From contig OZ253555.1 in NCBI GenBank assembly GCA_965262725.1, positions 416,001 to 480,000 on the forward strand: DNA of 64,000 bases. The letters are read 5' to 3'. Position numbers and translations under genes: made by a program. This stretch comes from Dehalococcoidia bacterium (lineage in GTDB: Bacteria; Chloroflexota; Dehalococcoidia; UBA2979). Below the pieces are notes generated by a model. That model was not told the DNA's origin. It saw only the letters and a program-made list of their open reading frames with translations, and searched no databases. Shown in pieces: positions 11,484-43,746 of this stretch (position 1 is its first letter; each line of letters opens with the position of its first letter).

Positions 11484-12263
11484 TCAGGATCGCGGCCGTC
11501 CGTCGAGCAGCGGCGCGACCAGCGCCCGCAGCACCTCCGAGGGTTCGCGCCCGCGCGCCTCCGCGAGGTGCCGCTCGAGGGAGTGGTAGACGTGCAGCGC
11601 CTGGTCGTCGTTCCCGTCGGCGAGGTGGATCCCGATCAGCACGCCGGCGGCGCTCTGGTGCAGCGGCGCGCTGTCCCATGTCCGCTGGGCGACGAGCAGC
11701 GCCTGGTCCACATCGCCGCGCGAGGCGAGCCGGCGCGCGTATCCGTCCAGGGCGCGCAGGAACCGGTCCCTGAACCCCGTGCGGGCGCGCTCGGCCCACT
11801 CGTCGTCCCAGCCGGCCAGCGGCTCCAGCATGAGGATCTCGTGGCGACCGTCCCCGGGCAGGGGCTGCGAGCGATCCGCGATGCGGGCCGCCAGCGCCTC
11901 CGCCTCCCACACGTCGACCGTCACGCGGGGGTGGAGGCGCAGCGTGTCGCCGTCCGTCTCGAGCAGGGGCAGGCGGGTCGCCCGCAGCCGTGTGAGCGTC
12001 TGGCGCAGGCTTGACCGGGCGCTCGCGGTCTCCAGGTGGGGGGTGAGCCGTCGGGCGACGGTCCTTCTGGGCAGGCCGCGCGGGTTGAGGGCCAGCAGGG
12101 CGACGAGGCGCCGGACGCTCTTCGGCAGCGTGCGCGGGGTGCCGTCCGCGGTGAGAGCGAACCCACCCAGCAGGGAGACGCGGACGTCCCGGGGCGCGGG
12201 GGTGCTCTCGCCGGTCCGCCGGACCCGCCGGCGCGTTCTGCCGACAGGAGCATCCGCTCGCAT
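11484..12263 (-). CDS. SARP-family transcriptional regulator (wHTH + BTAD), divergent from the Tad operon
   Basis: RBS GGAGG. VRVSLLGGF, SSLRQTLTRLR, VTVDV, PLAGWDDEW, PLHQSA...HLADGN and GREPS. Confidence 0.9.
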   Translation of the reverse strand: MRADAPVGRTRRRVRRTGESTPAPRDVRVSLLGGFALTADGTPRTLPKSVRRLVALLALNPRGLPRRTVARRLTPHLETASARSSLRQTLTRLRATRLPLLETDGDTLRLHPRVTVDVWEAEALAARIADRSQPLPGDGRHEILMLEPLAGWDDEWAERARTGFRDRFLRALDGYARRLASRGDVDQALLVAQRTWDSAPLHQSAAGVLIGIHLADGNDDQALHVYHSLERHLAEARGREPSEVLRALVAPLLDGRPRS

Positions 12264-12388
12264 CACATTCCTCCGTTCCTCCTCTCCCGCAGCGATCCAC
12301 CGGTTCCGGACGACCGGATCGTGCACGGCGCCGGGACGCACCGTTCCAATTCGCGCGACAAAAAGACGTTCCGCGTGTCCGGCCTGTG

Positions 12389-12439
12389 GTGAACCGACTG
12401 TGAACCTGTGGCGAGGGCTCCGTGCACCCGCCGTGACCC
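12389..12439 (+). promoter_or_regulatory. Heptamer direct repeats at 11/22-bp spacing (SARP-type operator candidate)
   Basis: GTGAACC 12389, GTGAACC 12400, GTGCACC 12422 and GTGACCC 12433, in the divergent intergenic region. Confidence 0.6.
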
Positions 12440-12616
12440 CTGGGCCACGCGCGGCGGCGGCGCCGGCGCGCACGAAATCAGCCGCGGCGCGCGATTCTGT
12501 CGCGGGATTTGGAACGGTGCGCCTCGTAGGGTGTTGCCCGTTTCGCCGAGAGCCGGCGCCCAGGTCGAGTGGCTTCGGAGCGGCGCCGGGTCGGCGAGAC
12601 GGGCGGGGGCGGGGCG

Positions 12617-13339
12617 ATGGCGGCCGAGAGCGCGGAGCAACGCGGACGAGCGGTGGCGCTGCCCCGCGTCGACATGCGACTCCTGGCCGGCCTCGCCCTC
12701 GTCGCCGTCTCGGTGGTGGGCGGCCTGACGCTGTGGAGCGCGGCGCGGACCACGACCCCGGTGGTGGTCGCCGCCCGCGACATCGGCTCCGGCGCCGTCA
12801 TCGAACCCGACGACCTGGCGCTGGCCGAGGCGCGGCTCGAGGACCCGCTCGCCGCGCTCGCCCTTCCCGAGGCGGAGCTCGCTGCCGCCGTCGGCCGCAC
12901 CGCGACCGGCACGATCCATGCCGGCGAGCTCGTGGTGCGTCCCGACCTGGGGAGCGGCCCGGTGATCGGTCCGGGCGAGCTCGCCGTGACGATCCCGGTC
13001 GAAGACGACGCCGTCTTCGGGCGGCTGCGCCGCGGCGCCGTGGTGACGGTGATGGCGACGAGCGACGCGGGCCAGCCGGAGAGCCGGACGGTGGCGCTCC
13101 TGGAGCGGGCGGTGGTCTACGCGGTGGCGCTGGAGTCGACGCGGGTCTCCCTCGGCGGGTCGGGCGACGCCTCGCAGGACGGCCGCCCCGCCAACGTGAC
13201 GCTGGTGATCCCCAGGGAGCGGGCGGAGGCGGTCGCGCACGCCCTGGTCAACGCCGAGCTGACGCTGCTGCTGCTTCAGCCGGAGCCCGGCTCCGGACCC
13301 GCCACCGGGCCCGCAGCAGGTGAGGGAGGCCGTCCGTGA
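12617..13339 (+). CDS. cpaB: Flp pilus assembly protein CpaB/RcpC-like (SAF domain)
   Basis: N-terminal TM segment, SAF motif VVVAARDIGSGAVIEPDDL; first gene of the Tad operon. Confidence 0.8.
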   Translation: MAAESAEQRGRAVALPRVDMRLLAGLALVAVSVVGGLTLWSAARTTTPVVVAARDIGSGAVIEPDDLALAEARLEDPLAALALPEAELAAAVGRTATGTIHAGELVVRPDLGSGPVIGPGELAVTIPVEDDAVFGRLRRGAVVTVMATSDAGQPESRTVALLERAVVYAVALESTRVSLGGSGDASQDGRPANVTLVIPRERAEAVAHALVNAELTLLLLQPEPGSGPATGPAAGEGGRP

Positions 13340-14574
13340 CGAGTGAGAGCGACCCGCGGGTGCTGCTCGCGGCCGGAAGCCGCGAGCTGGAGCGGCGGCT
13401 GAGCAGGGAGCTGGCCCAGGCCGGGATCGCCATCGGCGGGCGCTGCCTGGACGGGCCGAGCCTGCTGGAGCGGGCCTCTCAGCCCGGCTTCGATGTCGTG
13501 CTGGCGGCCGCGGAGCTGCACCGGCTCACAGACGGCGTGCTCGCGGCGCTGCGCGAGCGCCGGCTGCCGGTGGTGCTGCTGGCGGCGGATGCCGCCGACG
13601 CGGCGAGGCTCTCCGGGCTGGCGCGCGTGCTGCCCGCCTCCTCGCCCGGCGCGGTCGTCGCGGCAGCCCTGCGGCAGGCCGCAGCGCCCGGCGCGCGGCC
13701 TCCGGGCCCCGTGGACGCCGCCGGCTCAGCCGGCGGCGCGGACGCCCCGCCCGCCGCGCTCCCTCCCGCGGCGGTGCGGGACGTCCCCGGCGCTCACGCG
13801 GGAGGAGCAGGCGGCCGCGTGGTGGCCGTGACCAGCGGCAAGGGCGCGCCGGGGAAGACGACGATCGCGATCTCGCTGGCGGCGCTGCTCGGGGAGAGCG
13901 GCACGGACGTCGTGCTGCTGGACGCGGACCTCCGCGGCGGCAACGTCGCCGGGTACCTGGATCTCGACCCCCGGCGCGGGCTGGTGGGACTGGCGGCGGC
14001 GGGCGGGCGGCTCGACCGCGAGCTGCAGGAGGGGCCGGGCTGCTCGGTGCTCGCGGGCGTGGAGCGCCCCGAGCTCGCGGCGGGGCTGGCGGGCGGGGCG
14101 CTGAGCGGCGTGATCTCCGCGCTGCGCGAGCGCTTCGAGACGGTGGTGGTGGACCTCGGCGCGCCGCCTGATGCGGGGCTGCTGCGGGCGGCCGACGACC
14201 TGCTGCTGGTGACGGGCCCCGACCTGGTCTCGATCTGGAACGCGCGCACCGCGCTCCCCGCGATCCGGGAGGACACGGGCTCCGCCCTGCCCCGCGCGGT
14301 CGTGAACCGCCGCGAGGGCCGGGAGCACTACCCCGCCGGCGAGGTCGGGCGGGCGCTCGGCATGGCGGTCCTGGGCGTGGTGCGGGAGGAGCGCGAGAGC
14401 GCGCGCCGGGCGGTGTCGAGGCAGATCCCGCTCTCCGCCGCAGGCGGGAAGGTGACGCTCGACCTCCGCGCGCTCGCAGGGGCACTCGCCCCCGCGGCAC
14501 CGGCAGCGGCGGCGCCCGCCGAGGCGCTCCAGGGCGCCGACTGGCTGACGTTCGGTCTGGCCGAGGGGTACTGA
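13336..14574 (+). CDS. TadZ/CpaE-like MinD/ParA ATPase with receiver-like N-terminus
   Basis: VVAVTSGKGAPGKTT, LLDADL and VVVDLG. Confidence 0.85.
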   Translation: MTSESDPRVLLAAGSRELERRLSRELAQAGIAIGGRCLDGPSLLERASQPGFDVVLAAAELHRLTDGVLAALRERRLPVVLLAADAADAARLSGLARVLPASSPGAVVAAALRQAAAPGARPPGPVDAAGSAGGADAPPAALPPAAVRDVPGAHAGGAGGRVVAVTSGKGAPGKTTIAISLAALLGESGTDVVLLDADLRGGNVAGYLDLDPRRGLVGLAAAGGRLDRELQEGPGCSVLAGVERPELAAGLAGGALSGVISALRERFETVVVDLGAPPDAGLLRAADDLLLVTGPDLVSIWNARTALPAIREDTGSALPRAVVNRREGREHYPAGEVGRALGMAVLGVVREERESARRAVSRQIPLSAAGGKVTLDLRALAGALAPAAPAAAAPAEALQGADWLTFGLAEGY

Positions 14575-14575
14575 G

Positions 14576-15847
14576 ATGGTGGCGCCGGCCGCCTCGGGCG
14601 AGCGCGAGCGCGCGATCCGGAGCGAGGTGCGCGACGAGCTCCGGACGCTGCTCGACGCCGAGGCGCTGCTTCAGCCGGGGCCGGCGGAGCACGAGCAGGT
14701 GGAGCGGCTCGTCTCGGAGCGCATCGCGGCCTGGAGCCGGCGCTCGGCGACGCTCGGCGAGCCGGCGCTCATCGAGCCGGAGCGGCTCGCGCGCCGCATC
14801 CTCGACGACCTGCTCGGACTCGGGCCGCTGCAGCCCCTGCTGGACGACCCCGAGGTCGAGGAGATCATCGTCAACGGCCCGCAGCGCATCTTCGCGATCG
14901 CAGGCGGCAGCAAGCGGCTGACCGACGTGGTGTTCGAGGACGACGAGCAGCTGCTGGCGCTGCTGCGCCGCGCGCTCGGTCCGCTGGGGCGCCGTCTCGA
15001 CGAGACCTCCCCGATGGTCGACGCCCGCCTCGCCGACGGCTCGCGGCTCAACGCCGTGATGCCGCCGCTCGCCTCCGGCGGCACGCACGCCACGATCCGC
15101 AAGTTCCTGCTGCGGGCGCGCACGCTCGAGGACCTCGTCTCACTCGAGGCGCTCACGCCCGAGGCCGCCGCGTTCCTGGAGGCGGCGGTGCGCTCGGGCC
15201 TGAACATGCTGATCGCCGGGGGCACCGGCTCGGGCAAGACGACCTGCCTGAACGCGCTCGGGTCGTCGGTCTCGGGGCTGACGGAGCGGGTCGTCACCAT
15301 CGAGGAGACGGCGGAGCTCCAGCTCGAGCCGGTGCTGCCGGACTGCGTGGCGCTGCAGGCGCGCCAGCCCAACGCCGAGGGCGCCGGCGGCGTCCCGATC
15401 CGCGCGCTGGTCAAGAACGCGCTGCGCATGCGGCCGACGCGGATCGTGGTGGGCGAGGTCCGCGGCGCCGAGGCGCTGGACATGCTGACCGCCATGAACT
15501 CGGGCCACGACGGCTCGATGTGCACCATCCACGCCAACGGTCCGCGGGAGGCGCTGACCAAGCTCCGCACCTACGCGCTGATGGCGGAGGAGGCGCTCCC
15601 GGCGCAGGCCGTCACCGAGATGATCGCCGAGGCCATACAGCTCGTCGTGCACCTGCGCATGGACCCCTCGGGCCGGCGCCTCGTCTCGAGCATCTACGAG
15701 GTCACGGGCCTGGAGGGCGACCAGGTCGCCGGGAGCGAGCTCTTCGCGCGCGGGGCCGGCCGGCTCGCGTGGACCGGCATCCGCCCCCGGCGGGCGGCGC
15801 GGATGCTTGAGGCCGGCTACCCCGGACCCGGCGCGAGCGGTTCGTGA
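14576..15847 (+). CDS. tadA: Tad pilus assembly ATPase TadA/CpaF
   Basis: GLGPLQPLLDDPEVEEI, GGTGSGKTT, LRMRPTRIVVGEVRG and AMNSGHDGS. Confidence 0.95.
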   Translation: MVAPAASGERERAIRSEVRDELRTLLDAEALLQPGPAEHEQVERLVSERIAAWSRRSATLGEPALIEPERLARRILDDLLGLGPLQPLLDDPEVEEIIVNGPQRIFAIAGGSKRLTDVVFEDDEQLLALLRRALGPLGRRLDETSPMVDARLADGSRLNAVMPPLASGGTHATIRKFLLRARTLEDLVSLEALTPEAAAFLEAAVRSGLNMLIAGGTGSGKTTCLNALGSSVSGLTERVVTIEETAELQLEPVLPDCVALQARQPNAEGAGGVPIRALVKNALRMRPTRIVVGEVRGAEALDMLTAMNSGHDGSMCTIHANGPREALTKLRTYALMAEEALPAQAVTEMIAEAIQLVVHLRMDPSGRRLVSSIYEVTGLEGDQVAGSELFARGAGRLAWTGIRPRRAARMLEAGYPGPGASGS

Positions 15848-15977: not shown

Positions 15978-16856
15978 GTGCACGTCGTGCTGAGCCTCGC
16001 CTTCGGGCTCGGCCTCTACCTCATATTCCGCTGGCTCGCCGGCGGGCAGCCCGAGGTGCGCCCCGACGAGGACCCGAACGAGCGGCCCGCGGGGCGCGTC
16101 GGCTGGATCGCGCGGCGCCTCGCCTCGCCCGGCGCGGACGGGGTGGGCCTCCGCGAGCTGGCGCCGGCGAGCGCGGCCGCGGGTGCGGCGAGCGCGCTCC
16201 TCTCCCAGCTCTTCTTCGGCTGGCCGGTGGTGACGCTCGCGGCCGCGGGCGCCGGGCTGCTGCTCCCCACCTGGTACTACCGGCAGCGCGCCCAGAGGCG
16301 CCGCGGCGAGATCGAGGAGGCGGTCGGCGAGGCGGTCGAGACGCTGCGCGACGCCGTGCGCATCGGGCTCGGCGTCGAGGAGGCGCTGCGCGCGCTCGCC
16401 GTGACCGGTCCCGCCGCGCTGCGGCCGGTCTTCAGCCAGGTGGAGCGCGACCTCCGGCTGGCCGGCTTCGAGGAGGCGCTGGACCGGGCGCGCGAGCGGC
16501 TTCAGGAGCCGCTCTTCGACACGCTGGCGGTGGCGCTCCTGACCGCCTACCGCATCGGCGGCCGCAACCTCGCGGCGGTGCTCGACGGGCTCAGCCACTC
16601 GGTGCGCGGCAGCGTGCAGGTGCGCCGCGAGGTGCGGGCCAACCAGGCCCAGAACGTGCTGTCGGCGCGGGTGATCGCGGCGCTGCCGCTGCTCTTGATC
16701 CTGGTCATCCGCGGCTCCAACCCGAACTACCTGGCCGCCTTCTCGCAGCCCGTGGGGCAGGCGGTGCTCGCCTGCTGCCTGCTCAGCATCACCGTCGGCT
16801 ACACGGTGATGCTCCGGCAGGCGGCGCTGCCGGGCCAGGAGCGGGTGCTGAGGTGA
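15978..16856 (+). CDS. tadB: TadB (type II secretion F-domain membrane protein)
   Basis: TM segments, GGRNLAAVLDGL...SARVIAALP, and position after tadA. Confidence 0.88.
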   Translation: MHVVLSLAFGLGLYLIFRWLAGGQPEVRPDEDPNERPAGRVGWIARRLASPGADGVGLRELAPASAAAGAASALLSQLFFGWPVVTLAAAGAGLLLPTWYYRQRAQRRRGEIEEAVGEAVETLRDAVRIGLGVEEALRALAVTGPAALRPVFSQVERDLRLAGFEEALDRARERLQEPLFDTLAVALLTAYRIGGRNLAAVLDGLSHSVRGSVQVRREVRANQAQNVLSARVIAALPLLLILVIRGSNPNYLAAFSQPVGQAVLACCLLSITVGYTVMLRQAALPGQERVLR

Positions 16857-17797
16857 CGGCCGCGCTCGCCCTCAGCTGCGCGCTCGGCGCCGGGCTCTGG
16901 CTGATGCTGATGGGGCAGCCCGTGGGGCGGCCTCGCCCCGAGCTCGGGGCGAGGCTCCGGCGGCTCTCGGTGCAGGAGCGGATGGCCCAGGAGGAGCGCG
17001 CCGGCGCTCCCGGCGCGCCGATGTTCCGCTGGGCGCTGCTGGAGCGGCTGCTGCGCCCGCTGCTGGAGGACGCCGGCGGCGCGGCCTCGGGGCTGCTCAG
17101 GCGCCTCGGCCTCGAGGCCGGGGACCTCGACTCACGGCTCGCGCTCGGCTGGCCGGGGATGAGCGCTCCGCAGTTCCGCGGGCAGCAGCTCGCAACCGGC
17201 GCCGTCGCCGCGCTCGTCCTCCCCGCCATGAACGTCCTGGGCGTGCACCCCTTCGGGGCGTGGCCGGTGTGGCTGTGGGTGGGGGCGTTCGCAGCCGGCT
17301 TCGCCGCCCCGAGCTGGCAGCTCGCGGGCCGGCTCACGAAGCGGCGCCGCGCGATCCACGCCGAGCTGCCGGTGGCGCTCGACCTCTTCGTGATCGCGGC
17401 GTCGGCCGGGCTCTCCCCGGAGCAGGCGCTGGTCGAGGCCGGCCGTCAGCTGGACGGCGTGCTGGGCGGGGCGCTGCGCGAGGTGGTGCGCGAGGCCGGG
17501 CTCGGCACGGTCGAGGGTGCCGAGGGGCTGCAGCTACTCGCCGACCGCGAGGGCATCGCCGAGCTGCGCTCGCTCGCCGGCGCGTGGCAGCTCTCGCACA
17601 CGCAGGGCCTGCCGCTGGCGCCGGCGATCCTCTCGCTCGCGGAGACCGTGCGCGACCGCAGAAGGGCGCAGCTCCTGGAGGAGGGCGGCAAGGCGGCCGT
17701 CCGGATGCTGTTCCCGGTCACGATTTTCATCTTCCCGGTGTTCCTGGTCGTCCTGCTCTACCCCGCCGGGGTGGAGCTGCTCGGCCTGGGCAAGTGA
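16853..17797 (+). CDS. tadC: TadC (type II secretion F-domain membrane protein)
   Basis: GTGA overlap with tadB. ELPVALDLFVIAASAGLSPEQAL and MLFPVTIFIFP. Confidence 0.88.
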   Translation: MTAALALSCALGAGLWLMLMGQPVGRPRPELGARLRRLSVQERMAQEERAGAPGAPMFRWALLERLLRPLLEDAGGAASGLLRRLGLEAGDLDSRLALGWPGMSAPQFRGQQLATGAVAALVLPAMNVLGVHPFGAWPVWLWVGAFAAGFAAPSWQLAGRLTKRRRAIHAELPVALDLFVIAASAGLSPEQALVEAGRQLDGVLGGALREVVREAGLGTVEGAEGLQLLADREGIAELRSLAGAWQLSHTQGLPLAPAILSLAETVRDRRRAQLLEEGGKAAVRMLFPVTIFIFPVFLVVLLYPAGVELLGLGK

Positions 17798-17831
17798 GAC
17801 GGCTGGTCATGGACCGGAAGGGGGTGTGGTG

Positions 17832-18014
17832 ATGCTGACGAGGATCCATGGGGTGGTGCGGAGGCTGCACGAGGACGAGCGCGGTGCGGCGATGGTCGAG
17901 TACGCGATCGTCACCGCCGTGATCGCGGTCGTGGCGCTGACCGCGGCGCAGGCGATCGGCACCAGCGTGGTCGGGGTGTTCACCGACATCTCCGCCGCGC
18001 TGGACGGGATCTAG
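17832..18014 (+). CDS. flp: Flp-family type IVc pilin (60 aa)
   Basis: DERG/AAMVEYA Flp motif followed by a hydrophobic helix. Confidence 0.92.
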   Translation: MLTRIHGVVRRLHEDERGAAMVEYAIVTAVIAVVALTAAQAIGTSVVGVFTDISAALDGI

Positions 18015-18024: not shown

Positions 18025-18411
18025 GTGCGCGCGGGCGAGTCGGGGCAGAGCACGCTCGAGCTGGCGCTCGTGCTGCCGGCGCTCCTGGTCGTGCTGGTGG
18101 GCGCGGTGCAGTTCGCGCTCATCCAGCACGCCCGGAACGTCGCCGACACCGCGGCCGCGGAGGGCGCGCGGCTCGGCGCCGCGGAGGGTCACACGCTGCT
18201 CGAGGGCGCGGAACGCACGCGGGAGGTGCTCGCGTCCGGGCTCGGTGCGGCCGGTGCGGCCTTCTCCGTCCGGGCGGAGGACCGGGGCGGGACGGTGGTG
18301 ACCGAGGCGAGCGGGCAGTACCGGCTCTTCATCCCGTGGGTGAGCGACCTCGCCGTCGCGATCGAGTCGCGATCCGAGGTCCGCAAGGAGGGACTGCGCA
18401 GTGGTCCGTAG
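18025..18411 (+). CDS. tadE: TadE-family pseudopilin
   Basis: ESG/QSTLELALVLP...AAAEGAR. Confidence 0.88.
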   Translation: MRAGESGQSTLELALVLPALLVVLVGAVQFALIQHARNVADTAAAEGARLGAAEGHTLLEGAERTREVLASGLGAAGAAFSVRAEDRGGTVVTEASGQYRLFIPWVSDLAVAIESRSEVRKEGLRSGP

Positions 18412-18853
18412 AGCGTTTCGGGCGCTGCTCCGGCCGGCCGCCGGCGAATCCGGCGGCGTGCTCATCGAGGCCGCGCTGGTGGTCCCGGTGGTCCTGCTGG
18501 TGGCCTTCGGCGTCCTGATGGCGGGGCGCATCGTCCACGCGCAGATCGGCGTGGCGGCCGTGGCGCGCGAGGCGGGGCGCACGCTCGCCCAGGCGCCGTC
18601 CGCTCAGGACGGGCTCGCCAGCGCCCGCTCGCGCGCGCTGGCCGTGGCGGACGGGCACGGGCTTCAGGCGGCGGAGCTCGACCTCGTGCTGGAGGCGGGG
18701 ACGTTCCGCCGCGGCGGCACGGTGCGCGCCATCGCCTCCTACCGCGTCGCGCTCGGCGACCTGCCGATGCTCGGCCGGCTCGGGGTGACGGTCCGGAGTG
18801 CGCACGCGGAGCGCGTCGAACTCTACCGCAGCCGGGCGGCGGTGCGACCGTGA
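18401..18853 (+). CDS. TadE/TadF-family pseudopilin
   Basis: ESG/GVLIEAALVVP...VAREAGR. Confidence 0.85.
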   Translation: MVRRAFRALLRPAAGESGGVLIEAALVVPVVLLVAFGVLMAGRIVHAQIGVAAVAREAGRTLAQAPSAQDGLASARSRALAVADGHGLQAAELDLVLEAGTFRRGGTVRAIASYRVALGDLPMLGRLGVTVRSAHAERVELYRSRAAVRP

Positions 18854-19323
18854 GCGGGAGCCTGCGGCGCCTCCACGAAGACGAGCGCGGGGCGGCGATG
18901 GTGCTGGTGGCGCTGTGGCTGGTGGCGCTGGTCACCGTCGCCGGGCTCGTCGTCGACGGCGGGATGCTGCTGGCGCAGCGCCGCGCGCTGCAGAACGTCG
19001 CCGACGCGGCGGCCGCGGCCGGCGCGATGCAGCTCGACGAGTCCCGTTACCGCGCCTCCGGCGGGTCGGAGGTCGTACTCGACCGTGCCGCGGCGCACGC
19101 GGCGGCCGCCGGCTACCTGGCGGCGGAGGACGGGCTCGCCTACACGGTGACGGCCGGCCGGGCGCGGGTTGCGGTCGATGTCGAGCGCCGGGCCCCGACC
19201 GCCTTCCTGCGCGTGATCGGCTTAGGCCACGTCAGCATCCGCGCCCGCGCCTCGGCCGAACCGCGGCACGGGGTCGTGCGGGCGGTGGGTGGTGGGGCAC
19301 CGGCCGAGGCGGCGGCGTCGTGA
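18850..19323 (+). CDS. TadG-like pseudopilin
   Basis: DERG/AAMV...GLVVDGG...LQNVADAAAAAGA. Confidence 0.85.
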   Translation: MSGSLRRLHEDERGAAMVLVALWLVALVTVAGLVVDGGMLLAQRRALQNVADAAAAAGAMQLDESRYRASGGSEVVLDRAAAHAAAAGYLAAEDGLAYTVTAGRARVAVDVERRAPTAFLRVIGLGHVSIRARASAEPRHGVVRAVGGGAPAEAAAS

Positions 19324-32987: not shown

Positions 32988-33001
32988 GAAGGGAGCCGGG
33001 G

Positions 33002-36356: not shown

Positions 36357-37441
36357 GCCACATCGACATCGATCAGCTGAAGCGCCGCAACCCGCTCGCC
36401 GACATCGTCCGGCGCCACGGGGTCGAGCTGCGCGGGCAGGGGAGGCGACTGACGGGGCGCTGCCCGTTCCACGACGACCGCACGCCGAGCCTCTGCGTCT
36501 ATCCCGAGACGGAGTCCTTCCACTGCTTCGGCTGCGGCGCCGCCGGCGACGTGATCGACTTCATCCGCCGCACCGAGGGCCTGGGCTTCCGCGAGGCCGT
36601 TCTGCGGCTCGGAGGCGGAGCCGTGGGCGGCGGTTCCGGTGGCAGTTCGATCGGGACCGCCGCCCACGCGCCACCGCCCCCGGTGCGGGCCCGCGTGCCG
36701 GAGAAGACCGAGCAGGCCCCGGTGCTGTCGCTCGACGACCGGCTGATCCTCACGGCGGCCTGCGAGCTCTACCACGAGACGCTGCTCGAGACGCCCGCGG
36801 CGCTGCGCTACCTCGATGAGCGGGGGGTGCAGCCCTGGCTCGCGAAGGGCTGCCGGCTCGGCACGAGCGACGGCAAGAGGCTCGTGCCGTACCTGAAGCG
36901 GCGCCGGCTCAGCCTGAAGCGCGCAGAAGCGCTCGGCCTGCTCTTCCGCTCCGGCGACGAGGCGATGACCAGCCGCCTCGTGATCCCGGAGCTGCGCGGC
37001 GCGCACTGCGGCTGGATGGTCGGCCGCGCCCCGGACGGCGGCAGCGGTCCGAAGTACCGGGGTCTCTCGCTCCCGAAGCCGCTGCTCGGCTACGAGCGCG
37101 GCAGGCGGCGCCTCTTCCTCACCGAGGGGCCGTTCGACTGGCTGACGCTCACGGGCTGGGGGCTGCCGGCGTGCGCGCTGCTCGGGACGCAGCCCGGGCG
37201 GGGCGTGCTGCGGCTGCTCGAACGCGCGCGCTCGGTCGTGCTCGTGATGGACTCAGACGAGGCCGGTCGCGACGCCGCGCAGCGGCTCTCCGCCGAGCTC
37301 GGAGGGCGCGCAGAGGTCCTCGAGTTGCCCGCGGGCGTCAAGGACGTGAGCGAGCTGGGCGCGCGGCCGGGCGGCCGCGACGCCTTCTTCCGGCTGCTGG
37401 GCGCGGAGAGGAGGGACACGGATGTCGCGATCACGCACTGA
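36353..37441 (+). CDS. DnaG-like primase (CHC2 zinc finger + TOPRIM)
   Basis: CPFHDDRTPS...HCFGC, TEGPFD, MDSDEAG and KDVSE; ATGA-coupled to virB4. Confidence 0.9.
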   Translation: MSHIDIDQLKRRNPLADIVRRHGVELRGQGRRLTGRCPFHDDRTPSLCVYPETESFHCFGCGAAGDVIDFIRRTEGLGFREAVLRLGGGAVGGGSGGSSIGTAAHAPPPPVRARVPEKTEQAPVLSLDDRLILTAACELYHETLLETPAALRYLDERGVQPWLAKGCRLGTSDGKRLVPYLKRRRLSLKRAEALGLLFRSGDEAMTSRLVIPELRGAHCGWMVGRAPDGGSGPKYRGLSLPKPLLGYERGRRRLFLTEGPFDWLTLTGWGLPACALLGTQPGRGVLRLLERARSVVLVMDSDEAGRDAAQRLSAELGGRAEVLELPAGVKDVSELGARPGGRDAFFRLLGAERRDTDVAITH

Positions 37442-39983
37442 ACTCTCGTACCTGGCAGAGGTCGTCGCGCCCCGCGATCTGGAGGCGAGCATCGCCTCGG
37501 CGCGGGGGATGTTCGGCGCGCTGGCCGGCGAGTCGATCTCGCTCGAGATCGCGACGGGCGCCGCCGGAGGCCCGCGCTGGTACGTGCGCTCGGGCACGGC
37601 ATCGGGCCTCGACCGCGCGCTCGCGCAGCTGCGCGCGGCCTACCCGCAGGCGCGGGCCGAGCGCATCGCACCGGACCGTGCCGATCTCGATCCGGCCCGT
37701 GTGCTCGGGGCGGAGCAGGCCATCGTGGTCGGGCTGCGGCCCTCCACCGGGGACATCCCCTCGCTCCGCAGCGACTGGCGGAACGAACCCTCACCGCTGA
37801 CCGGGGTGCTGGCGCGGGCGGCGCCGCGGGAAGACGAGCGGGTCGTCTGCCGGCTGACACTCGGCCCCGCTCCGGCCGGGGCGGCCGGCCGCATCCACCG
37901 CCGGGCGGCGCCCGCCGGCGCGCCGCGGCGCGAACCTGCCGGAGACACGGGGCCGAGCCCGGTCCCGCTCGTCGGGGCGCTCGCGATCGCCGCGGCGGGC
38001 CTGCTGGGACGACAGTGGTACCTCGATGGGGAGTGGGCGCTGCTGCTCGCGGGCGGCATCGGCGCCTTCGTCGGGCTGCCGCTCGCGGGAGCGCTCGCCA
38101 TGCGCATGCTGCGCTCCCCCGAACCGCTCCCGCCGAGGGTGGTGGAGCAGAAGCTCGGCTCGCCTCTGGTGAGCGCGAGCCTCGAGGTCCACGCGATCGG
38201 CTGGCATGACTCGGGCCCCGAGCGCCTGCGCCTGCTCGCTCGTGAGACCGCGGCGGCCTACGGCGCCTACGACTCGGCGGGCGGGGGACTGCGCCCCGCG
38301 GCTCCGCACGCGCCGCGCCGCAGGCCGGACCGGAAGCTGCCGCTCCTTCTGAACACCGCCGAGCTCGCCGGCCTCTGGCACCTGCCCGACCAGGCGGGCG
38401 CCCCGGCCGGGATCCGCCGCACGACGGCGCAGCGGCTTCCGCCGGCGCCCGGCCACGCGGCGCGCGGCGCGCGCGTCGGCACCTCAGATGCGGACGGCGG
38501 CGACGCTCCCGTCCACCTCCCCGCGCCGCTCCTGCACCGCAACCAACTGATCGTGGCGAAGACGCGGCGCGGCAAGTCGACGCTGCTCAGGCACCTCGCG
38601 GCCCGCGTGATGGAGGGGGCAGGCGGGGGATCGGACGGGACGGCGCTGGTGGTGGTCGACCCCCACCAGGACCTCGCCGAGGCGGTGCTGGACGCCGTGC
38701 CGCCGGAACTCGCGGACCGCACGACCTACCTCGACTTCGCGAACCTGGAGCGGCCGGTCGGCCTCAACCTGCTCGACGTCTCGCTCTTCCCCGACCGCGA
38801 CCGCACGACCGAGCACATCGTCACGATGATGAACCGCCTCTGGCCGGACAACTGGGGGCCGCGCATGGAGGGCGCGCTGCGGGCATCCCTGCTCGCGCTG
38901 CTCGACGCGAACCGCCACTACGAGCGGGAGGCGCAGTTCACGCTGCTCGACGTCGCGCCGATGCTCACCGACCGGGAGCTGCGCGAGCGCGTGCTCGACC
39001 AGGTGCAGGACCCGGCGGTGCGCGCCTGGTGGCGCGACAACTACGACCGTGCGGGGCGCGTGCTGCAGCAGCAGACCGCGAACCCCGTCACCTCGAAGAT
39101 CGGCCGCTTCACGGTCACGGAGGCATCGCGCCTGGTCTTCGGGCAGGCGCGCTCCACCTTCGATCCGCGCGCGATCGTGCGCGACGGCGGCGTGCTCGTC
39201 GTCAACACCGCCGTCGGCGCGCTCGGCGAGGGCGCCGCCTCGCTCGTGGGGGCGACGCTGCTCAACCTGCTCGGCCTCCTGATCGAGGAGCAGGTGGCGC
39301 TGCCGCCTCAGCACCGGCGGAAGGTGATCGGGCTCATCGACGAGTCGAGCACGCTCGGCGCCGTCGACTACACGCGCATGCTCTCCGAGCTCGGCAAGTA
39401 CGGCGCGAGCTTCGTGCTGGTGACGCAGTCGCTCGCCAAGCTCGACGCCATCGACCGCAACCTCGCCCCGACGATCTTCGCCAACTCCGACGGCCTCACC
39501 GTCTTCGGGGTCAGCGCCGAGGACGCCCGCCGGCTCACGCCGGAGCTGGGAGGCGGGATCGAGGTCCCCGACCTGGTCTCGCTCGACGACTTCACCTGCT
39601 ACGCGCGCTGGTGGGACGGCCGCGCCCGCCCGCCCGCGTTCTCGTTCCGGGTCGACCCGCCGCCGCCGACCGTCCCGGGTCGGGCCCGGGCGATCGCGGC
39701 GCGCTCCGCCGAGCGCGTCGGCAGGCCGCGCGAGCAGGTGGTCGAGGAGATCACGCAGGCGCTCTCGGAGCACTCGCCGTCGAGGTCGTCGGACCGCCGC
39801 GGGCGGAAGTCCCAGGAGGAAGTGGCGGAGGCAGGGCAGGGGAGTGCCGCGGGAGCGGGTGACGACCTCGGAACCCCGACGGGCAGGGCGGAGCGGCGCG
39901 AGAGTCCGGGGACCGCAGGACGGTCGTCCCGCGGCAACGACCACCGCGGCCGCGGCCCCCACCCCCGGGGGCGCCATGCGTGA
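37422..39983 (+). CDS. VirD4/TraD-like type IV coupling ATPase (853 aa, two internal TM segments)
   Basis: AKTRRGKST, VVDPHQDL, WGPRME, IDES and LSELGKYG...TQ. Confidence 0.85.
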   Translation: MSRSRTELSYLAEVVAPRDLEASIASARGMFGALAGESISLEIATGAAGGPRWYVRSGTASGLDRALAQLRAAYPQARAERIAPDRADLDPARVLGAEQAIVVGLRPSTGDIPSLRSDWRNEPSPLTGVLARAAPREDERVVCRLTLGPAPAGAAGRIHRRAAPAGAPRREPAGDTGPSPVPLVGALAIAAAGLLGRQWYLDGEWALLLAGGIGAFVGLPLAGALAMRMLRSPEPLPPRVVEQKLGSPLVSASLEVHAIGWHDSGPERLRLLARETAAAYGAYDSAGGGLRPAAPHAPRRRPDRKLPLLLNTAELAGLWHLPDQAGAPAGIRRTTAQRLPPAPGHAARGARVGTSDADGGDAPVHLPAPLLHRNQLIVAKTRRGKSTLLRHLAARVMEGAGGGSDGTALVVVDPHQDLAEAVLDAVPPELADRTTYLDFANLERPVGLNLLDVSLFPDRDRTTEHIVTMMNRLWPDNWGPRMEGALRASLLALLDANRHYEREAQFTLLDVAPMLTDRELRERVLDQVQDPAVRAWWRDNYDRAGRVLQQQTANPVTSKIGRFTVTEASRLVFGQARSTFDPRAIVRDGGVLVVNTAVGALGEGAASLVGATLLNLLGLLIEEQVALPPQHRRKVIGLIDESSTLGAVDYTRMLSELGKYGASFVLVTQSLAKLDAIDRNLAPTIFANSDGLTVFGVSAEDARRLTPELGGGIEVPDLVSLDDFTCYARWWDGRARPPAFSFRVDPPPPTVPGRARAIAARSAERVGRPREQVVEEITQALSEHSPSRSSDRRGRKSQEEVAEAGQGSAAGAGDDLGTPTGRAERRESPGTAGRSSRGNDHRGRGPHPRGRHA

Positions 39984-41823
39984 CGAACCGGCGCGTCTCG
40001 CACGGGCCCTGGAGTGGATCGCCCGGCTCCCGCTCTGCGGTGAGCCGGAGCTGGCCCGGCTGCTCGGCGTGGATGAGCACGACGCCCGCCGGCTCATCCA
40101 CCTGCTTTCCGCGCAGGGATGGGTCGAGACCGTCGCGGCAGCCTCGCCGGAGCTGGAACCGCGGCGACTCGCCGTCCTGCGGGACGAGGCGGTGCCGGCC
40201 CTGGCGACCGCGTGCGGACGGGATCTCGCCTCGCTCGCGGGCGCCGTCCCCCTCCGCCCGCGCGATCTCTCAAACCGGGTGGCCCGGCTTGAGATCACCG
40301 CCTGCGTGAATCGCTTCCTGGCCGACCTCGCCGACGATCTGGAGAGCTCCAGTATCGCCGAGCTCGCCGACGCGCGGTCGCTCCCGCTCGCCCTGCCCCC
40401 GGCCGGGCGCTGGTGGCTCCCGGACACGGAGGGCTACGGCTGCCTCCGCTCGGGTCCGATCCACGCGCCCTTCCTCGTGGCGTGGGACCGCGCGGCGGCG
40501 CCGGACGTCCATCGCCGCAGGCGGCTGGCCGGGTGGTTCGCGGCGAGCGCCCGTGTCGACAGGCGGTGGGGCACCGAAGGGCTCCCGCCCGTGCTCGTGA
40601 TCTGCCCCTCCGCCCGGGAGTGGCGGGTGTGGGAGGAAGCGCTGGCGAAGCGGGACGGCGTAGGGCCCGGGTCTCCGGACCTGCTCTTCACCACCCGCGA
40701 GGAGCTGCGCGCAGCCGGCTCGGGCGATGCGCGGTGGTGGCGGCCCGACCGCGCGCCGGCGCCGCTCGTCGAGCAGGTCGGATGGGGGGAGGCGCCGACC
40801 CTGGACGCGGTCCGGATCGAACGGCCGCTCGACGACTGCACGCCGCCGCCCCGCCGCGACGGAACATCGCTTGGCAGGCGTGCGTTCGATCAGGCGACGA
40901 GCGGGCAGGTGGGGCCGGACCGGCAACGTCTTGCCGGCCTCGCGCGCGCGACCAGCCCGGCTGAGAAGACCCTCATCGAGTGGGTGGCGCGGCATCCGCT
41001 CCTCACCGCCGCCGATCTCGCGGCGCTCACGAGCGAACCGGCGGGACTGATCAGGCGCCGACTGGAGCGGCTCACGAGCTGCGGCGCGATCGGTGCGGAC
41101 GCGGAATCCGTGGAGACGGGGAGGAACTCCCGTATGAACAGAGCCGACGACCTCGAGTCGCGGTACCTGCTGACCGAGCTGGGAATGCGTTGGCTCGCCG
41201 CTCGGGCCGGCGTGCCTCCGGCCATCTTCGCCAACCACGGGGGAGTCACGTTCGCCTCCGGGGAGCGGACATCCTCCCGGCGAGTGGTCCGGCACCGCGA
41301 GCACACGCTCGGCGTGAACCGCTTCGCCGCTCGCCTGGCCCTCGATGCCAGGGCCGCGGGCTGGCGCCTCGCGGAGTGGCGGAACGAGGCTGAGTCGACG
41401 CACCGCTTCGTGGCGGAGGACGGGCGGATCGCCTGGATCCGTCCAGACGCCTCCGGCCTGCTTGTGCGTGACGCGGAGGCGCGCCCGTTCCTTCTGGAGT
41501 ACGACCGCGGGACGCTCGACTCGGGCGACTACCGCGCGAAATTCGAGGGGTACCGGCGGTACTACGACGCCGCGGCGTGGCGGGGGGAGTTTCCCGGGAA
41601 GCCCGGGCTGGTGTTCGTTTGCACCGACCGCAGCGCAGAGGATCGCGTGGCGCGCCTGGCGAGGTCGGCCTCGCCGGACCTGGCGCTGGTAATGACATGT
41701 GAGTGGCGCGGCGAGCAGGATCCTGCTGGGTTGGCGGGGCCGATCTGGCGGAACCAGCGCGAAGACCGGCGTCGCCGCGCGCTCCCGCCATCGGACGAAG
41801 TCGCCGTGGCGGGCAACCGATGA
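39976..41823 (+). CDS. Replication-relaxation family (MOB_C-like, PD-(D/E)xK) relaxase with two tandem modules
   Basis: C-terminal module HTLGVNRF...IRPDASG...FLLEYDRGT...KFEGYRRYY. N-terminal module is degenerate (FLVAWDR). Confidence 0.8.
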   Translation: MRDEPARLARALEWIARLPLCGEPELARLLGVDEHDARRLIHLLSAQGWVETVAAASPELEPRRLAVLRDEAVPALATACGRDLASLAGAVPLRPRDLSNRVARLEITACVNRFLADLADDLESSSIAELADARSLPLALPPAGRWWLPDTEGYGCLRSGPIHAPFLVAWDRAAAPDVHRRRRLAGWFAASARVDRRWGTEGLPPVLVICPSAREWRVWEEALAKRDGVGPGSPDLLFTTREELRAAGSGDARWWRPDRAPAPLVEQVGWGEAPTLDAVRIERPLDDCTPPPRRDGTSLGRRAFDQATSGQVGPDRQRLAGLARATSPAEKTLIEWVARHPLLTAADLAALTSEPAGLIRRRLERLTSCGAIGADAESVETGRNSRMNRADDLESRYLLTELGMRWLAARAGVPPAIFANHGGVTFASGERTSSRRVVRHREHTLGVNRFAARLALDARAAGWRLAEWRNEAESTHRFVAEDGRIAWIRPDASGLLVRDAEARPFLLEYDRGTLDSGDYRAKFEGYRRYYDAAAWRGEFPGKPGLVFVCTDRSAEDRVARLARSASPDLALVMTCEWRGEQDPAGLAGPIWRNQREDRRRRALPPSDEVAVAGNR

Positions 41824-42956
41824 GCGGCAGGTTGGCCATTCCGCACCCGCCGGACGAGGCTCTGAGAGACGAGCGACTGTTCGCGTATCTCCAGGACGTC
41901 GCCGAGCATCCATTCTCGCTGGCGTTGGAACGCGATGAGCGCCTCGGCCTGAGCCGGTACAACGGCGTGCAGGTCCGCCGACGACTCATCGAACTGGGCT
42001 GCGTGCGTCCGCATCGCGTCTCGACGGGCCGTCGATCGGGGCAGGCCGTGCTGCTCGAACTCACGCCCGTCGGCCGAGAGCACCTGGAGGCAGCTGGCGT
42101 CCGCATAGACCAGCCTGAGGGCCCTCTTGCCTACCGAAGGCGCTACTACGCGAACAGGCTCGCCGGGTACGCGCGCCGCATGTGGCCTGACGCGGCGGTT
42201 GAGATTGGCCGCGGGCTCGACTCGCCCGACCACTCACCGGATGTCGCGGTCATGGTCCCGGGCGGCGGCGACGTGAAGGGAGCCCGGTCCGTCGCCTTCG
42301 AGGTCATCGAGACCGGCGACGCTGGCGGGCTGAACTCGCACCTGCAGGACATTGGTGCTTTCGACGAAGTGTTCCTCTGCGCGGACACGGCGGAAGCCGC
42401 CGCCGACCTGAAGGAGGAGGCGCAGCGCCTCGTGCGGTCGGAGTTCATTCAACGAATCACGTGTACTCCCGTCAGCTCCCTTCTCTCGGCACCAGCCGAG
42501 TCTGGCGTGCAGATGATCGGCACGAGCACTGCCAGGGCGATTCGTGCCATGTCCCGCCGCTCTCGGCCCGATGCTGCTCTCCTGCAACACGTCGTGGAGG
42601 CGTACGGGCATCTTCACGATCTCGATTGGCTGCAGGACTCACCGCTCACCGGGCTCGAGGCTGTTCGAGAGCGGACAAACCCGCTGGCGCCGATGCCGGA
42701 GGCACAGGCGCTGCGCGGGCTGCTCGTGGATGCGGCGCAGCGCGCTGCCGCCCATGCCCGCGAGGTACCGCTTCAGGCGCCGTTGCACCTGTTCCTCACG
42801 CGCTACGTCGAGGGGAAGCGGGTAACCGAGATCGCCGGCGAGCTGGGCGTCAGCCGCGAGTGGTGCTCACGGGCGTACCGCAAGCAGGCGCTGAAGCTCA
42901 CCGGGATGCAGTTCTTGCGGCTGGCGGCCTCCGGGTCGAGGAATGGCAGCCGCTGA
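41820..42956 (+). CDS. wHTH + PD-(D/E)xK-like + C-terminal sigma4-like HTH protein
   Basis: LELTPVG (wHTH wing), SPDVAV...VAFEV and RYVEGKRVTEIAGELGVSREWCSR; ATGA-coupled to the relaxase. Confidence 0.7.
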   Translation: MSGRLAIPHPPDEALRDERLFAYLQDVAEHPFSLALERDERLGLSRYNGVQVRRRLIELGCVRPHRVSTGRRSGQAVLLELTPVGREHLEAAGVRIDQPEGPLAYRRRYYANRLAGYARRMWPDAAVEIGRGLDSPDHSPDVAVMVPGGGDVKGARSVAFEVIETGDAGGLNSHLQDIGAFDEVFLCADTAEAAADLKEEAQRLVRSEFIQRITCTPVSSLLSAPAESGVQMIGTSTARAIRAMSRRSRPDAALLQHVVEAYGHLHDLDWLQDSPLTGLEAVRERTNPLAPMPEAQALRGLLVDAAQRAAAHAREVPLQAPLHLFLTRYVEGKRVTEIAGELGVSREWCSRAYRKQALKLTGMQFLRLAASGSRNGSR

Positions 42957-43014
42957 TGCCCTCTCGTCCGCGCGCGACGCTGTTTCGCAATCTCCCGGCG
43001 AGGCGACCCTGTTG

Positions 43015-43412
43015 AGCTCTCCCTGCCGCGAGATGGATGTCCGCTTCTCGGTCACGGTGCGCCAGCATCCGAAGCTGCGGAGACTCATCGAGGCGATTCC
43101 CGAACAGGAGTGGACGCCGATCCCGTACTGGCTGGAGGGCGGCGCCGATGTCTCAGAGACGACCTACACGCCGTTCGCACACGCGCCGGACGCCGTCCCG
43201 GTGCGGCTCATCGTCCGGCGCGTGCGGCCGACGCCCGGTTCGCAGCTCGCTCTCTTCGCGACGTACAGCTAATGGGAGCCGAACCAGAGGACCAGAGCGA
43301 TCCGGGAGACGCTCGAGCTGGAGGCCGACCATCGCCGCCACGCCGAGGTCGAGAACGCGATCCGCGACCTGAAGTACGGCGTGGGGCTCAATCACCTGCC
43401 GTCCGGCCGCTT
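43015..43412 (+). mobile_element. IS1380-family transposase internal remnant
   Basis: VRFSVTVR...WTPIPY...RLIVRRVRP.PGSQLALF, a stop, then EADHRRHAEVENAIRDLKYGVGLNHLPSGR. Confidence 0.85.
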
Positions 43413-43702
43413 AGCGGGAGCCGATCGCCCGCAGCGGCGGGCGATTGGCGTCGATGGCGTGGATGAGACAGGCCCGGAAGCCCTGGATCGGGCACTCGGG
43501 CAGCATCGGTCTCCCCCGCCCACTTGGGCCTCATCGTCCATGACTCCCACCACATTGGCATCAGCATCCAAACCAGATACCCTGCGTCCAAACTGGAAGG
43601 ACGTGCCTGAGCCGACCCACTGCCTCGACCGTGCAGAGGGTGCGAAATCGGGCGATTTTGAACCTGAACGGAGCGGTTTGGGGAGCACGAGGAACCGCGC
43701 GA

Positions 43703-43746
43703 CTCCCAAGCAGAGGGTCGCGGGTTCGAATCCCGTCTCTCGCTCC
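43703..43746 (+). tRNA. 3' half of tRNA-Gly(CCC), probable attR of the integrated element
   Basis: CTCCCAA-GCAGA-GGGTC-GCGGG-TTCGAAT-CCCGT-CTCTCGC-T. The 5' half (GCGAGAG..., TCTGC) is absent upstream. Confidence 0.88.

Follow-up and report, generated by a model that had tools for sequence, protein, structure and literature searches.

A Tad/Flp pilus operon and a monoderm-type type IV secretion system in a probable integrative and conjugative element of a Dehalococcoidia bacterium

Two co-oriented gene clusters, an operon for a Tad/Flp pilus at 12.5-25.4 kb and an operon for a type IV secretion system (T4SS) at 30.8-43.0 kb, lie close together in a 64-kb stretch of DNA from a Dehalococcoidia bacterium, which raises the question of whether they belong to one mobile element and whether the pilus takes part in its transfer. 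The stretch, here called the window, is 416,001-480,000 of the single 3.67-Mb contig of the source genome (G000) and has a G+C content of ~75%; all coordinates given without further mark are window positions. An earlier note on this DNA had read 11484-43746 as an integrative and conjugative element (ICE) of Chloroflexota whose Tad pilus provides mating contact. The Chloroflexota host agrees with the titles of all 24 longer loci related to the window: among 26 loci encoding related VirB6-like proteins, 24 are titled as Chloroflexota metagenome-assembled genomes (mostly Dehalococcoidia) and two, both short contigs, as Actinomycetota. Our analysis makes it highly probable that one ICE contains both the Tad and the T4SS modules, and this part of the earlier reading stood; that the pilus functionally serves transfer, by mating contact, is a role that we infer by analogy and regard as evenly balanced. 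An ICE carrying both modules and using the Tad pilus for mating contact is, by a modest preference, our best overall explanation.

The whole extent of such an element can be seen in a sister copy, copy C, which came, like the other copies, from searches of the source genome with the window sequence (blastn and tblastn). Copy C lies on the minus strand and starts at an intact tRNA-Gly(TCC) gene (genome 1719049-1719124), next to which are an attachment-site (att) arm and a 337-aa integrase (at 1717.8 kb), followed by ArdC and a second DnaG-type primase (1695.5-1688.7 kb), the BTAD and Tad genes (1671.8-1658.5 kb), the T4SS (1623.5-1611.1 kb), and a closing arm with a 44-nt repeat that retains the TCC anticodon. 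The copy spans 108.8 kb with no further core copy inside. Because its flanks are contiguous in G003, a genome of the same genus (C1:70857-79966), around an intact tRNA-Gly(TCC), that is, at a clean empty site, both operons of copy C lie inside one insertion.

The window copy (copy A) carries the same modules. Alignment of the att regions revealed three parts, an element-side arm, a tRNA-like core, and a second arm leading to the tyrosine integrase (337/338 aa). The last 150 nt before the right junction recur at 1610.3 kb (95%) and 3414.7 kb (90%) of the genome, and the att core alone at 327.3 kb (98%) and 160.3 kb. Copy A has its 46-nt repeats at genome 327309 and 459701. A single further close copy of the copy C integrase (94%) occurs, at 327.6 kb beside the 98% core repeat. 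From there to the right end of the element in the window the modules of copy C follow in equal order, A and C sharing six collinear blocks. Because the integrase and core at 327 kb are followed by modules in copy C order, the window copy is read from these sequences as a 132.4-kb element (genome 327,309-459,746) of which the window holds the right-hand third, rather than the 32 kb of the earlier note. It contains its own conjugation module with VirB4, a coupling protein and a relaxase candidate (Pfam, NCBIfam). No copy of the att core that could represent an attL was detected between the Tad and T4SS operons, either in the window or in copy C. The site-specific recombinases of the family comprise the att-adjacent 337/338-aa integrases at 1717.8 and 327.6 kb and a Phage_integrase protein encoded at 9531-11285.

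The right end of copy A was placed by the earlier note at a split tRNA-Gly. The end itself, at 43746, was upheld, but no tRNA gene was found in the window by ARAGORN or Rfam and the split-gene reading was dropped: 43701-43746 (+) is an att-type core repeat, a 46-nt 3' fragment of tRNA-Gly reaching from the anticodon loop to the acceptor end and 91% identical to the tRNA-Gly(CCC) of the source genome. It is preceded by an element-side arm ("P arm", 43560-43700, +) conserved in copies A, C and I, and directly followed by the gatD stop codon. The chromosomal flank consists of gatD and murT (43747-46016, -; GATase_3, MurT_C and Mur_ligase_M), and from the gatD stop codon onward it is syntenic with G001, G003 and G004, of the same genus, and with G008, of the same family. 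Because gatD-murT in these four relatives abuts DNA that lies at 299.9-313.3 kb in the source genome, with no tRNA between (in G003 it also meets DNA of 318.0-318.7 kb), the source genome carries 141-146 kb of extra DNA at the gatD site, and window 1-43746 is its right-hand part. The left end at 11484 could not be maintained, this position being only the end of a BTAD gene; the DNA absent from the relatives at this site extends past the left end of the window. Within the window, searches for a left att copy with the 32-nt core (up to three mismatches) and the T-loop motif (up to one) gave matches at the right end only. When window 38000-47000 was compared with short metagenome contigs, those of three runs from three studies bridged the integrated right junction, and loose contig ends at 43706 were dismissed as ordinary tRNA-Gly genes of other organisms. 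A transposase-gene fragment (43019-43415, +; ~20 copies in the genome at 79-97% identity by blastn) is inserted in the element end, and since contigs of three runs join 42942 directly to 43549, forms lacking this insert exist.

Elsewhere in the source genome, 3414715-3414915 holds an attP-like junction fixed in the chromosome, with element arm, core and integrase-side arm together; it adjoins a truncated T4SS tail and could be what is left of a tandem array. The tRNA-Gly(CCC) gene at 3452 kb was considered as the partner of the 3414.7-kb fragment and rejected, its neighbours being an amidase and a peptidase, with no integrase. The left flank of the 327-kb repeat (a PBP1 gene and a 2043-aa gene) gave matches of 570-710 nt at 70-73% in three congeners, from which no empty site could be defined. 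Within the 132-kb element, a 2.1-kb duplication (340883-342981 and 404226-406324 of the genome, 99.6% identical) carries tRNA-Ser(TGA), for which ARAGORN found five genes in the genome. The ArdC gene (ArdcN and a zincin-like peptidase domain), the second DnaG-type primase and two unnamed genes form a 6.5-kb module, seen in genome 386001-400000. Of this module six copies were found; in two copies of G003 and in copies A, B, C, E and F of the source genome its place is upstream of Tad.

The source genome contains four Tad modules: A, C, E (2505-2521 kb) and F (2075-2088 kb; ~76% nucleotide identity). Six full-length VirB4 genes with T4SS modules were found, in A, B (706-718 kb), C, D (1905-1891 kb), E (2616-2627 kb) and F (2098-2108 kb), together with partial T4SS modules at 37-33, 1076-1083 and 3419-3415 kb. 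All four TadA genes stand upstream of a co-oriented VirB4, at distances of 18, 47, 108 and 21 kb. The similarity breakpoints of the modules differ, with the Tad module ending at 25386 and the T4SS module beginning at 27.3-30.6 kb. A genome-wide search with PF00437 matched only the four TadA copies, and the source genome therefore lacks VirB11 as well as any further ATPase for a Tad or type IV pilus, in line with the earlier note, which had recognised no VirB11 in the window.

The pairing was then followed in 41 genomes, the source genome and 40 near relatives, in which a close TadA was defined by at least 74% and a close VirB4 by at least 60% identity. Close TadA occurred in six of them, close VirB4 in seven and both in five. 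G003 carries three ICE-type TadA (84-90% identical) and three close VirB4, and in all three pairs Tad lies upstream of its co-oriented VirB4, at distances of 19, 30 and 75 kb. G004 has neither gene, and G008 has TadA only. The latter was tried as a case of Tad without a T4SS and discarded: its locus is decayed, lacks tadB and tadC, contains an IS-like repeat (IS, insertion sequence), and lies between backbone blocks that are not neighbours in the source genome. A Tad operon without a T4SS at a conserved chromosomal locus in relatives, which the earlier note had named as evidence against its reading, was accordingly not found among them.

Across the phylum, 400 other Chloroflexota genomes were sampled evenly and four candidates were scored per genome, with four unpublished genomes entering the denominators only. 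TadA-like genes at E<=1e-70 are common (231 of 401 genomes). A top tier of TadA (E<=1.1e-126, 53-64% identity) was found in 15 genomes of the 400-genome sample and a top tier of VirB4 (E<=1.9e-115, 52-61% identity) in 16. Twelve genomes contain both, against ~0.6 expected under independence. In six of these twelve the two genes share a contig, and all six pairs, from five families, are co-oriented with Tad upstream, 13.5-39 kb apart and in equal gene order. The co-occurrence across Chloroflexota predicted by the earlier note is thus seen, and these comparisons indicate that the linkage of Tad and T4SS is not due to chance.

Quick maximum-likelihood trees (LG+G4) of TadA and VirB4 agree with this. 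In the TadA tree, 15 "native" TadA are set apart from the T4SS-linked TadA by a long, fully supported branch, a split that is partly circular since the "native" proteins were chosen by their low identity. The VirB4 tree repeats four supported TadA groupings, namely (G399, G343), a clade of six elements from other families, (F, (G003a, G003b)) and (G003c, (A, C, E)). The congruence that the earlier note had asked about extends to nearly all supported nodes, G199 excepted, and by these trees and gene orders the Tad and T4SS modules are co-inherited over deep divergence across Chloroflexota.

The Pfam scans covered 40 ORFs of the window, some small ORFs falling outside them. They confirmed a complete, secretin-less Tad/Flp operon of the monoderm form, in which CpaB, TadZ, TadA, TadB, TadC, Flp, TadE, a TadG-like protein and an A24 peptidase were all matched, as the earlier note had claimed. 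On the plus strand, CpaB/RcpC (12569-13339; RcpC and SAF) is followed by a TadZ-type ParA/MinD ATPase (13336-14574; CbiA/ParA), TadA (14576-15847; T2SSE, 164 bits), TadB (15978-16856; T2SSF) and TadC (16853-17797; T2SSF). The Flp prepilin (17832-18014, in ORF 17517-18014; Flp_Fap, 35.7 bits against a cut-off of 32.2) comprises 60 aa from an internal Met and shows, by reading of the sequence, a G/AAMVEY-type cleavage motif. Two TadE pseudopilins (18025-18853; two TadE matches) and a TadG-like protein (18850-19323; Pfam Tad) follow, each with one N-terminal transmembrane (TM) segment. Further downstream, 19880-20863 encodes a secreted or anchored protein without an assigned family (Pfam, hydropathy), consisting of a signal or TM segment and, after a linker of PGT repeats, a C-terminal domain that weakly resembles PKD; it travels with the Tad operon in other families. 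The next gene (20882-24832) encodes a 1316-aa LysM/SARP-like membrane protein (Pfam LysM, Trans_reg_C and BTAD; NCBIfam LysM) with TM segments at residues 21-39 and 79-97, LysM domains, a third TM segment at 443-461, 27-aa tandem repeats and a C-terminal SARP-like module of a winged helix-turn-helix (wHTH) and BTAD. In the nucleotide sequence these repeats are seven tandem units of 81 nt (27 aa) at 23373-24101, with 96% identity to the reference in the centre and 61-76% at the edges. The operon ends with a TadV-type A24 prepilin peptidase (24502-25386; Peptidase_A24, 55.2 bits), and at 25386 the likeness among all Tad-module copies stops (blastn breakpoints).

Upstream and divergent from the Tad operon is a BTAD-domain regulator (11484-12473, -; BTAD, 35.7 bits), of which a homologue occupies the equivalent position in copies C, E and F and in G003. 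The intergenic region between it and cpaB contains an inverted repeat of 44 nt, 77% complementary (12332-12526; repeat search), which is a candidate operator. Beyond the regulator lies the tyrosine recombinase (9531-11285, -), absent from the earlier note, whose integrase domain occupies the C-terminal ~330 aa of the ORF (Phage_integrase, 54.3 bits; XerC/D-like in NCBIfam, below cut-off). Copies of it accompany Tad copy E (98%) and occur at 677 kb (91%), and none accompanies copy C.

The T4SS operon resembles those of the mating-pair formation class MPF_FATA and has the same orientation as the Tad operon. The gene assignments of the earlier note for VirB6 (TrbL_4), PrgI, a VirB4-type ATPase, a DnaG primase, a VirD4-type coupling protein (T4CP) and Replic_Relax were borne out by Pfam. 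The first gene, all being on the plus strand, encodes a polytopic VirB6/TrbL_4 membrane protein (30826-32013; TrbL_4, 55.4 bits; 6 to 9 overlapping TM segments by hydropathy). The following ORF (32017-32448) had been called VirB2-like, a reading we do not accept, as hydropathy, Pfam and NCBIfam show a single-pass membrane protein with one TM segment and a poly-proline tract and gave no supporting match. The protein encoded at 32445-32987 is bitopic and was modelled with AlphaFold (pLDDT 79) as a TM helix and an NTF2-like domain; in Foldseek the model matched IcmL-like 5cnl, PrgL 7aed, TcpC 3ub1 and CagV 6iqt (E 7e-4 to 6e-3) and, at similar E-values, NTF2 enzymes, a fold-level result that is consistent with the VirB8-like identity proposed before. 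A VirB3-like member of the PrgI family (33232-33627, within ORF 32950-33627; PrgI, 28.2 bits against a cut-off of 27) starts, by reading of the sequence, at an internal Met at 33232.

A putative VirB4 N-terminal domain is encoded by a separate ORF (33827-34537; model pLDDT 69), for which a PDB sequence search gave no match and the ten best Foldseek matches were all R388 TrwK/VirB4 chains (E 2e-3 to 1e-2; next E 0.17). The ATPase part (34071-36356; P-loop_TraG and AAA_10) is probably of the CD1110 (MPF_FATA) type, its best NCBIfam model being conju_CD1110 with 323.1 bits against a cut-off of 325 for a query lacking the N-terminal domain ORF. Based on the model, VirB4 appears to be divided between two ORFs, one for the N-terminal domain and one for the ATPase, that overlap in different frames (33827-36356), and this split is also kept in related Chloroflexota loci and in Embleya. 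A DnaG-type primase with CHC2 zinc finger and Toprim (35972-37441; Pfam) and the VirD4-type T4CP (37422-39983; TraG-D_C and TrwB_AAD_bind, barely above cut-off) follow. The MOB_C relaxase candidate (39844-41823) matches Replic_Relax (PF13814, 69.9 bits against a cut-off of 25.3), a domain that has been equated with the MOB_C relaxase family in the part of the literature consulted (PMC5357655). It has an N-terminal wHTH with a degenerate copy, then Replic_Relax at residues 379-578, and PD and E-x-D-like motifs are visible by reading in the alignment of the C-terminal half. The Replic_Relax domain of the "tandem MOB_C-like relaxase" described earlier is therefore present, but BLASTP of the N-terminal against the C-terminal half (E=0.16, 26% identity) lends the tandem little weight. 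The operon is closed by a conserved terminal gene with a weak C-terminal helix-turn-helix (41703-42956), on the P-arm side in copies A, C and I. No VirB2 pilin and no VirB7/9/10 outer-membrane core, the latter as stated before, were matched among the 40 scanned ORFs, whose only peptidoglycan-related domain is LysM in the 1316-aa protein.

Between the two operons lies a variable spacer of lower G+C (0.67) with four small ORFs (25402-26761, -), one of which (26064-26432, -) encodes a clan AA (retropepsin-like) aspartic protease (TIGR03698, 64.6 bits against a cut-off of 57.35); its homologues at 1701 and 2490 kb adjoin the same neighbouring ORF. The spacer is followed by a gene pair absent from the earlier note and divergent from the T4SS operon (27358-30425, -). 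It consists of a small second Replic_Relax, MOB_C-like protein (27358-28110, -; 29.4 bits at residues 947-1121 of a 1184-aa ORF, delimited by a GC3 frame plot) and a second VirD4-like coupling ATPase (28850-30425, -; frame plot, tblastn and a weak DUF87 match) that is 39-42% identical to the main T4CP and in a single frame in copy D; in copy F the pair is located elsewhere. It resembles the VirD4 and MobC mobilisation module of streptococcal integrative and mobilizable elements of class 8, as described in the sections seen of PMC5357655. An NCBIfam scan of the small T4SS and spacer ORFs gave nothing above cut-off apart from the protease found separately. As to the remaining repeats, an IS of 1.2 kb (52461-53674) has ~17 more copies in the genome at >=99% identity, and several further IS families have a dozen or more copies each; the genome is unusually rich in IS for its 3.67 Mb. 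The segment 2315-3072 is part of a gene family with ~35 diverged matches in the genome (66-75% nucleotide identity), and 7996-8533 is a 537-nt repeat with five other copies at 94-96%, overlapping an ORF with weak IS110-transposase likeness.

The earlier note had described a Chloroflexota class of elements, but the pairing also exists outside this phylum. The best VirB4 match in the plasmid database (40%) lies on the linear plasmid unnamed2 of Embleya sp. NBC_00896 (Actinomycetota; NZ_CP108778.1), where the annotation lists a T4SS with PrgI family, XF1762 family, ATP-binding, T4SS coupling, replication-relaxation and NlpC/P60 proteins, and ~8 kb downstream SAF/CpaB, an unnamed gene, a T2SSE ATPase, two T2SSF, TadE, TadE/G and TadG-related proteins and a large BTAD protein. 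By tblastn, the record NZ_CP108785.1 of Embleya sp. NBC_00888 has the same layout. Both replicons share with the Chloroflexota element PrgI, a small gene before VirB4, VirB4 (39-40% identical), T4CP, the replication-relaxation protein, a full Tad operon and a homologue of ORF 19880-20863 that is 26-30% identical and stands beside the Tad operons; in NZ_CP108778.1, the only annotated record, a large BTAD protein also follows Tad/TadG. Unlike the element, they are linear, have the T4SS first with Tad 12-16 kb downstream, and encode an NlpC/P60 hydrolase. Rubrobacter plasmid and Streptomyces BHT-5-2 loci showed no Tad within 20 kb. In PLSDB, TadA homologues were found in 336 records at E<=1e-60, all below 60% identity and at most 50% among the matches listed. 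In Creative Commons PMC papers and bioRxiv we found no published Chloroflexota Tad-T4SS element, no Tad pilus acting in conjugation, and no publication on the two Embleya replicons.

Several known systems resemble the element in part. According to the portion available to us of PMC5696575, Cutibacterium acnes plasmids have a tad locus beside VirB4-, TcpC- and FtsK-like genes, and the link of Flp pili to conjugation is left unclear there. The large linear plasmids p15.1.R1 and p11-79 are, like the element, mobile DNA of a monoderm with tad beside a VirB4-family ATPase, a TcpC/VirB8-like protein and a DNA translocase; compared by description only, they differ in being plasmids rather than ICEs and in an FtsK/TraB-like translocase, and the text seen does not mention MOB_C (PMC5696575). 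The C. acnes VirB4 matches that we obtained (28.6%) lie on other, 31-kb plasmids. Pilus and T4SS ORFs are also mentioned for Micrococcus linear plasmids in what was seen of PMC11707576. A VirB4 that probably is of the same type (best model conju_CD1110), PrgI/VirB3, VirB6 and the VirB8-like protein connect the element with CTn2/CD1110 of C. difficile and the Prg/Pcf system of pCF10, and MPF_FATA systems, in the consulted part of PMC4027160, likewise have no VirB2 pilin, outer-membrane core or VirB11. These systems have surface adhesins and a VirB1-type hydrolase, whereas in the element no hydrolase was found among the scanned ORFs, VirB4 is in two ORFs, the primase lies inside the operon and a Tad pilus is linked. 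The IncI plasmids R64 and TP114 and the PAPI-1 island also combine a type IV filament machine with a VirB4/VirD4 apparatus, and there the filament promotes, and in PAPI-1 is required for, donor-recipient contact, as stated in the passages seen of PMC12857230 and PMC9045228. They are diderm systems with T4b-type pili, MPF_I or G-type T4SS, and HUH or MOB_H relaxases; the element instead has genes for a secretin-less Tad (type IVc) pilus, a monoderm MPF_FATA-like T4SS and MOB_C. As its filament genes are Tad-type and not of the T4b class (PilQ/PilS/PilV), the resemblance would be a functional one only. Finally, pRAW-type mycobacterial plasmids join VirB4/VirD4 with a second, unrelated envelope machine, which is ESX and not Tad, a likeness without sequence relation; the 2025 T4SS review in which they appear describes hybrids with type IV pili and with ESX, and does not contain the word "Tad" (PMC12857230).

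These comparisons reveal a large family of probable ICEs that use the 3' part of tRNA-Gly genes as att core. Its backbone runs from a core repeat and the tyrosine integrase through ArdC with the DnaG-type primase, the BTAD regulator, Tad/Flp, the LysM/SARP protein and the prepilin peptidase to VirB6, the VirB8-like protein, PrgI/VirB3, split VirB4, primase, VirD4, MOB_C, the terminal gene, the arm and a second core repeat, and IS elements and cargo lie between these modules. The integrase would excise the element, the MOB_C protein would nick the origin of transfer (oriT), and the coupling protein would pass single-stranded DNA to a pilus-less monoderm channel of VirB4, VirB6, VirB3 and VirB8. 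The Tad pilus, powered by TadA as the only VirB11/T2SSE-family ATPase of the genome, would make or stabilise donor-recipient contact, much as adhesins do in other MPF_FATA systems and type IV pili do for IncI plasmids and PAPI-1. The LysM-SARP protein may couple expression to the sensing of the cell wall or of contact.

Several observations weigh against this explanation. An intact tRNA partner of copy A is missing, no tRNA 5' half precedes its left repeat, four relatives have no tRNA at the site it occupies, and its second coupling-protein gene is frameshifted near 29.4 kb; copy A may no longer be mobile, and rearrangement in an IS-rich genome or secondary-site integration are guesses at its history. 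No Tad genes lie near copy D, those near copy B are reduced to remnants, among them the A24 gene, at a junction as in the window, and the Tad-T4SS spacing varies from 5 to ~96 kb. G016 and G018 have VirB4 only, four of the 16 top-tier VirB4 genomes (G335, G099, G391 and G041) have no close TadA, and G199 is the only taxon placed differently in the two trees. The count of 12 genomes with both top tiers depends on thresholds set at gaps in the score lists after viewing and on genomes that are kin, five being of one genus. No VirB1-type peptidoglycan hydrolase was found among the scanned window ORFs. With an identity of only 38-39% and a long branch in the tree, the Embleya TadA may have been recruited independently. 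Tad loci are often transferred horizontally, as noted in the part seen of PMC6668835, and their frequency on plasmids in PLSDB makes a cargo status plausible.

The main rival, improbable in our judgement but deserving serious attention, is that the Tad operon is adaptive cargo for adhesion or biofilm, taking no part in DNA transfer and helping at most indirectly through denser biofilms. Tad is classically an adhesion pilus and often moves horizontally (PMC6668835, seen in part), 176 of the 336 plasmid records with TadA homologues are typed non-mobilizable, no T4SS gene lies within 20 kb of the Tad locus on the Arthrobacter plasmid pYA7-1b, Tad is missing from some T4SS copies and genomes, and the host may depend on an ICE-borne Tad that is its only one. 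Cargo is, however, normally variable, while here tree topology, gene order and orientation hold at identities as low as 53% (TadA) and 52% (VirB4) in five families, the pairing recurs in Actinomycetota, and the ICE-linked TadA are separated from "native" Chloroflexota TadA by the long branch described above. That two unrelated islands, a Tad island with the 9531-11285 recombinase and a T4SS ICE, came to lie side by side in an IS-rich, rearranged hot spot seems improbable to a much greater degree. The separate repeat boundaries (25386 for the Tad end, 27.3-30.6 kb for the T4SS start), the recombinase flanking the Tad module in copies A and E, and the abundance of IS elements would fit it, but a search for direct repeats around the Tad module, as a nested island would have, gave nothing convincing, no att copy separates the modules, copy C holds both within one tRNA/repeat pair at a clean empty site, and synteny and congruent trees are phylum-wide. 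A Tad machine for DNA uptake as in Micrococcus luteus, acting in recipients or as an element-spread competence system, is about as doubtful; a Tad role in M. luteus transformation is cited in the section seen of PMC5696575 and the locus also encodes DNA-processing proteins, but the full donor-side set of relaxase, T4CP and VirB4 needs no uptake pilus. Least probable of all is a non-conjugative T4SS working with the pilus in effector delivery, killing or DNA release: hybrid and non-canonical T4SSs exist (PMC12857230, in part), yet relaxase, coupling protein, primase, ArdC, integrase, att repeats, empty site and many diverged copies point to self-transfer. An ICE whose Tad pilus serves mating contact is thus the reading that we retain.

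A bolder version of the mating-contact reading, which we hold only tentatively and think rather unlikely, is that a class of Terrabacteria-wide conjugative elements depends on the Tad pilus as an obligatory organelle for mating that has co-evolved with it, and that the LysM-SARP protein is a contact or cell-wall sensor switching transfer on. That class would comprise the Chloroflexota ICEs and the Actinomycetota linear replicons, with an MPF_FATA-like T4SS and MOB_C, and Tad would in effect be the missing "conjugative pilus" of monoderm conjugation.

Monoderm conjugation systems are thought to be pilus-less and adhesin-dependent. If the proposed role is true, the apparatus would be a third hybrid beside T4SS with type IV pili and T4SS with ESX. 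It would bear on the published question of whether Flp pili of C. acnes are linked to conjugation, and on the way in which mating partners are found by uncultured Chloroflexota, which are often filamentous or sheathed. With four Tad modules, six full-length VirB4 genes and several further partial T4SS modules in its 3.67 Mb, the genome also illustrates the extent to which such elements colonise a small genome.

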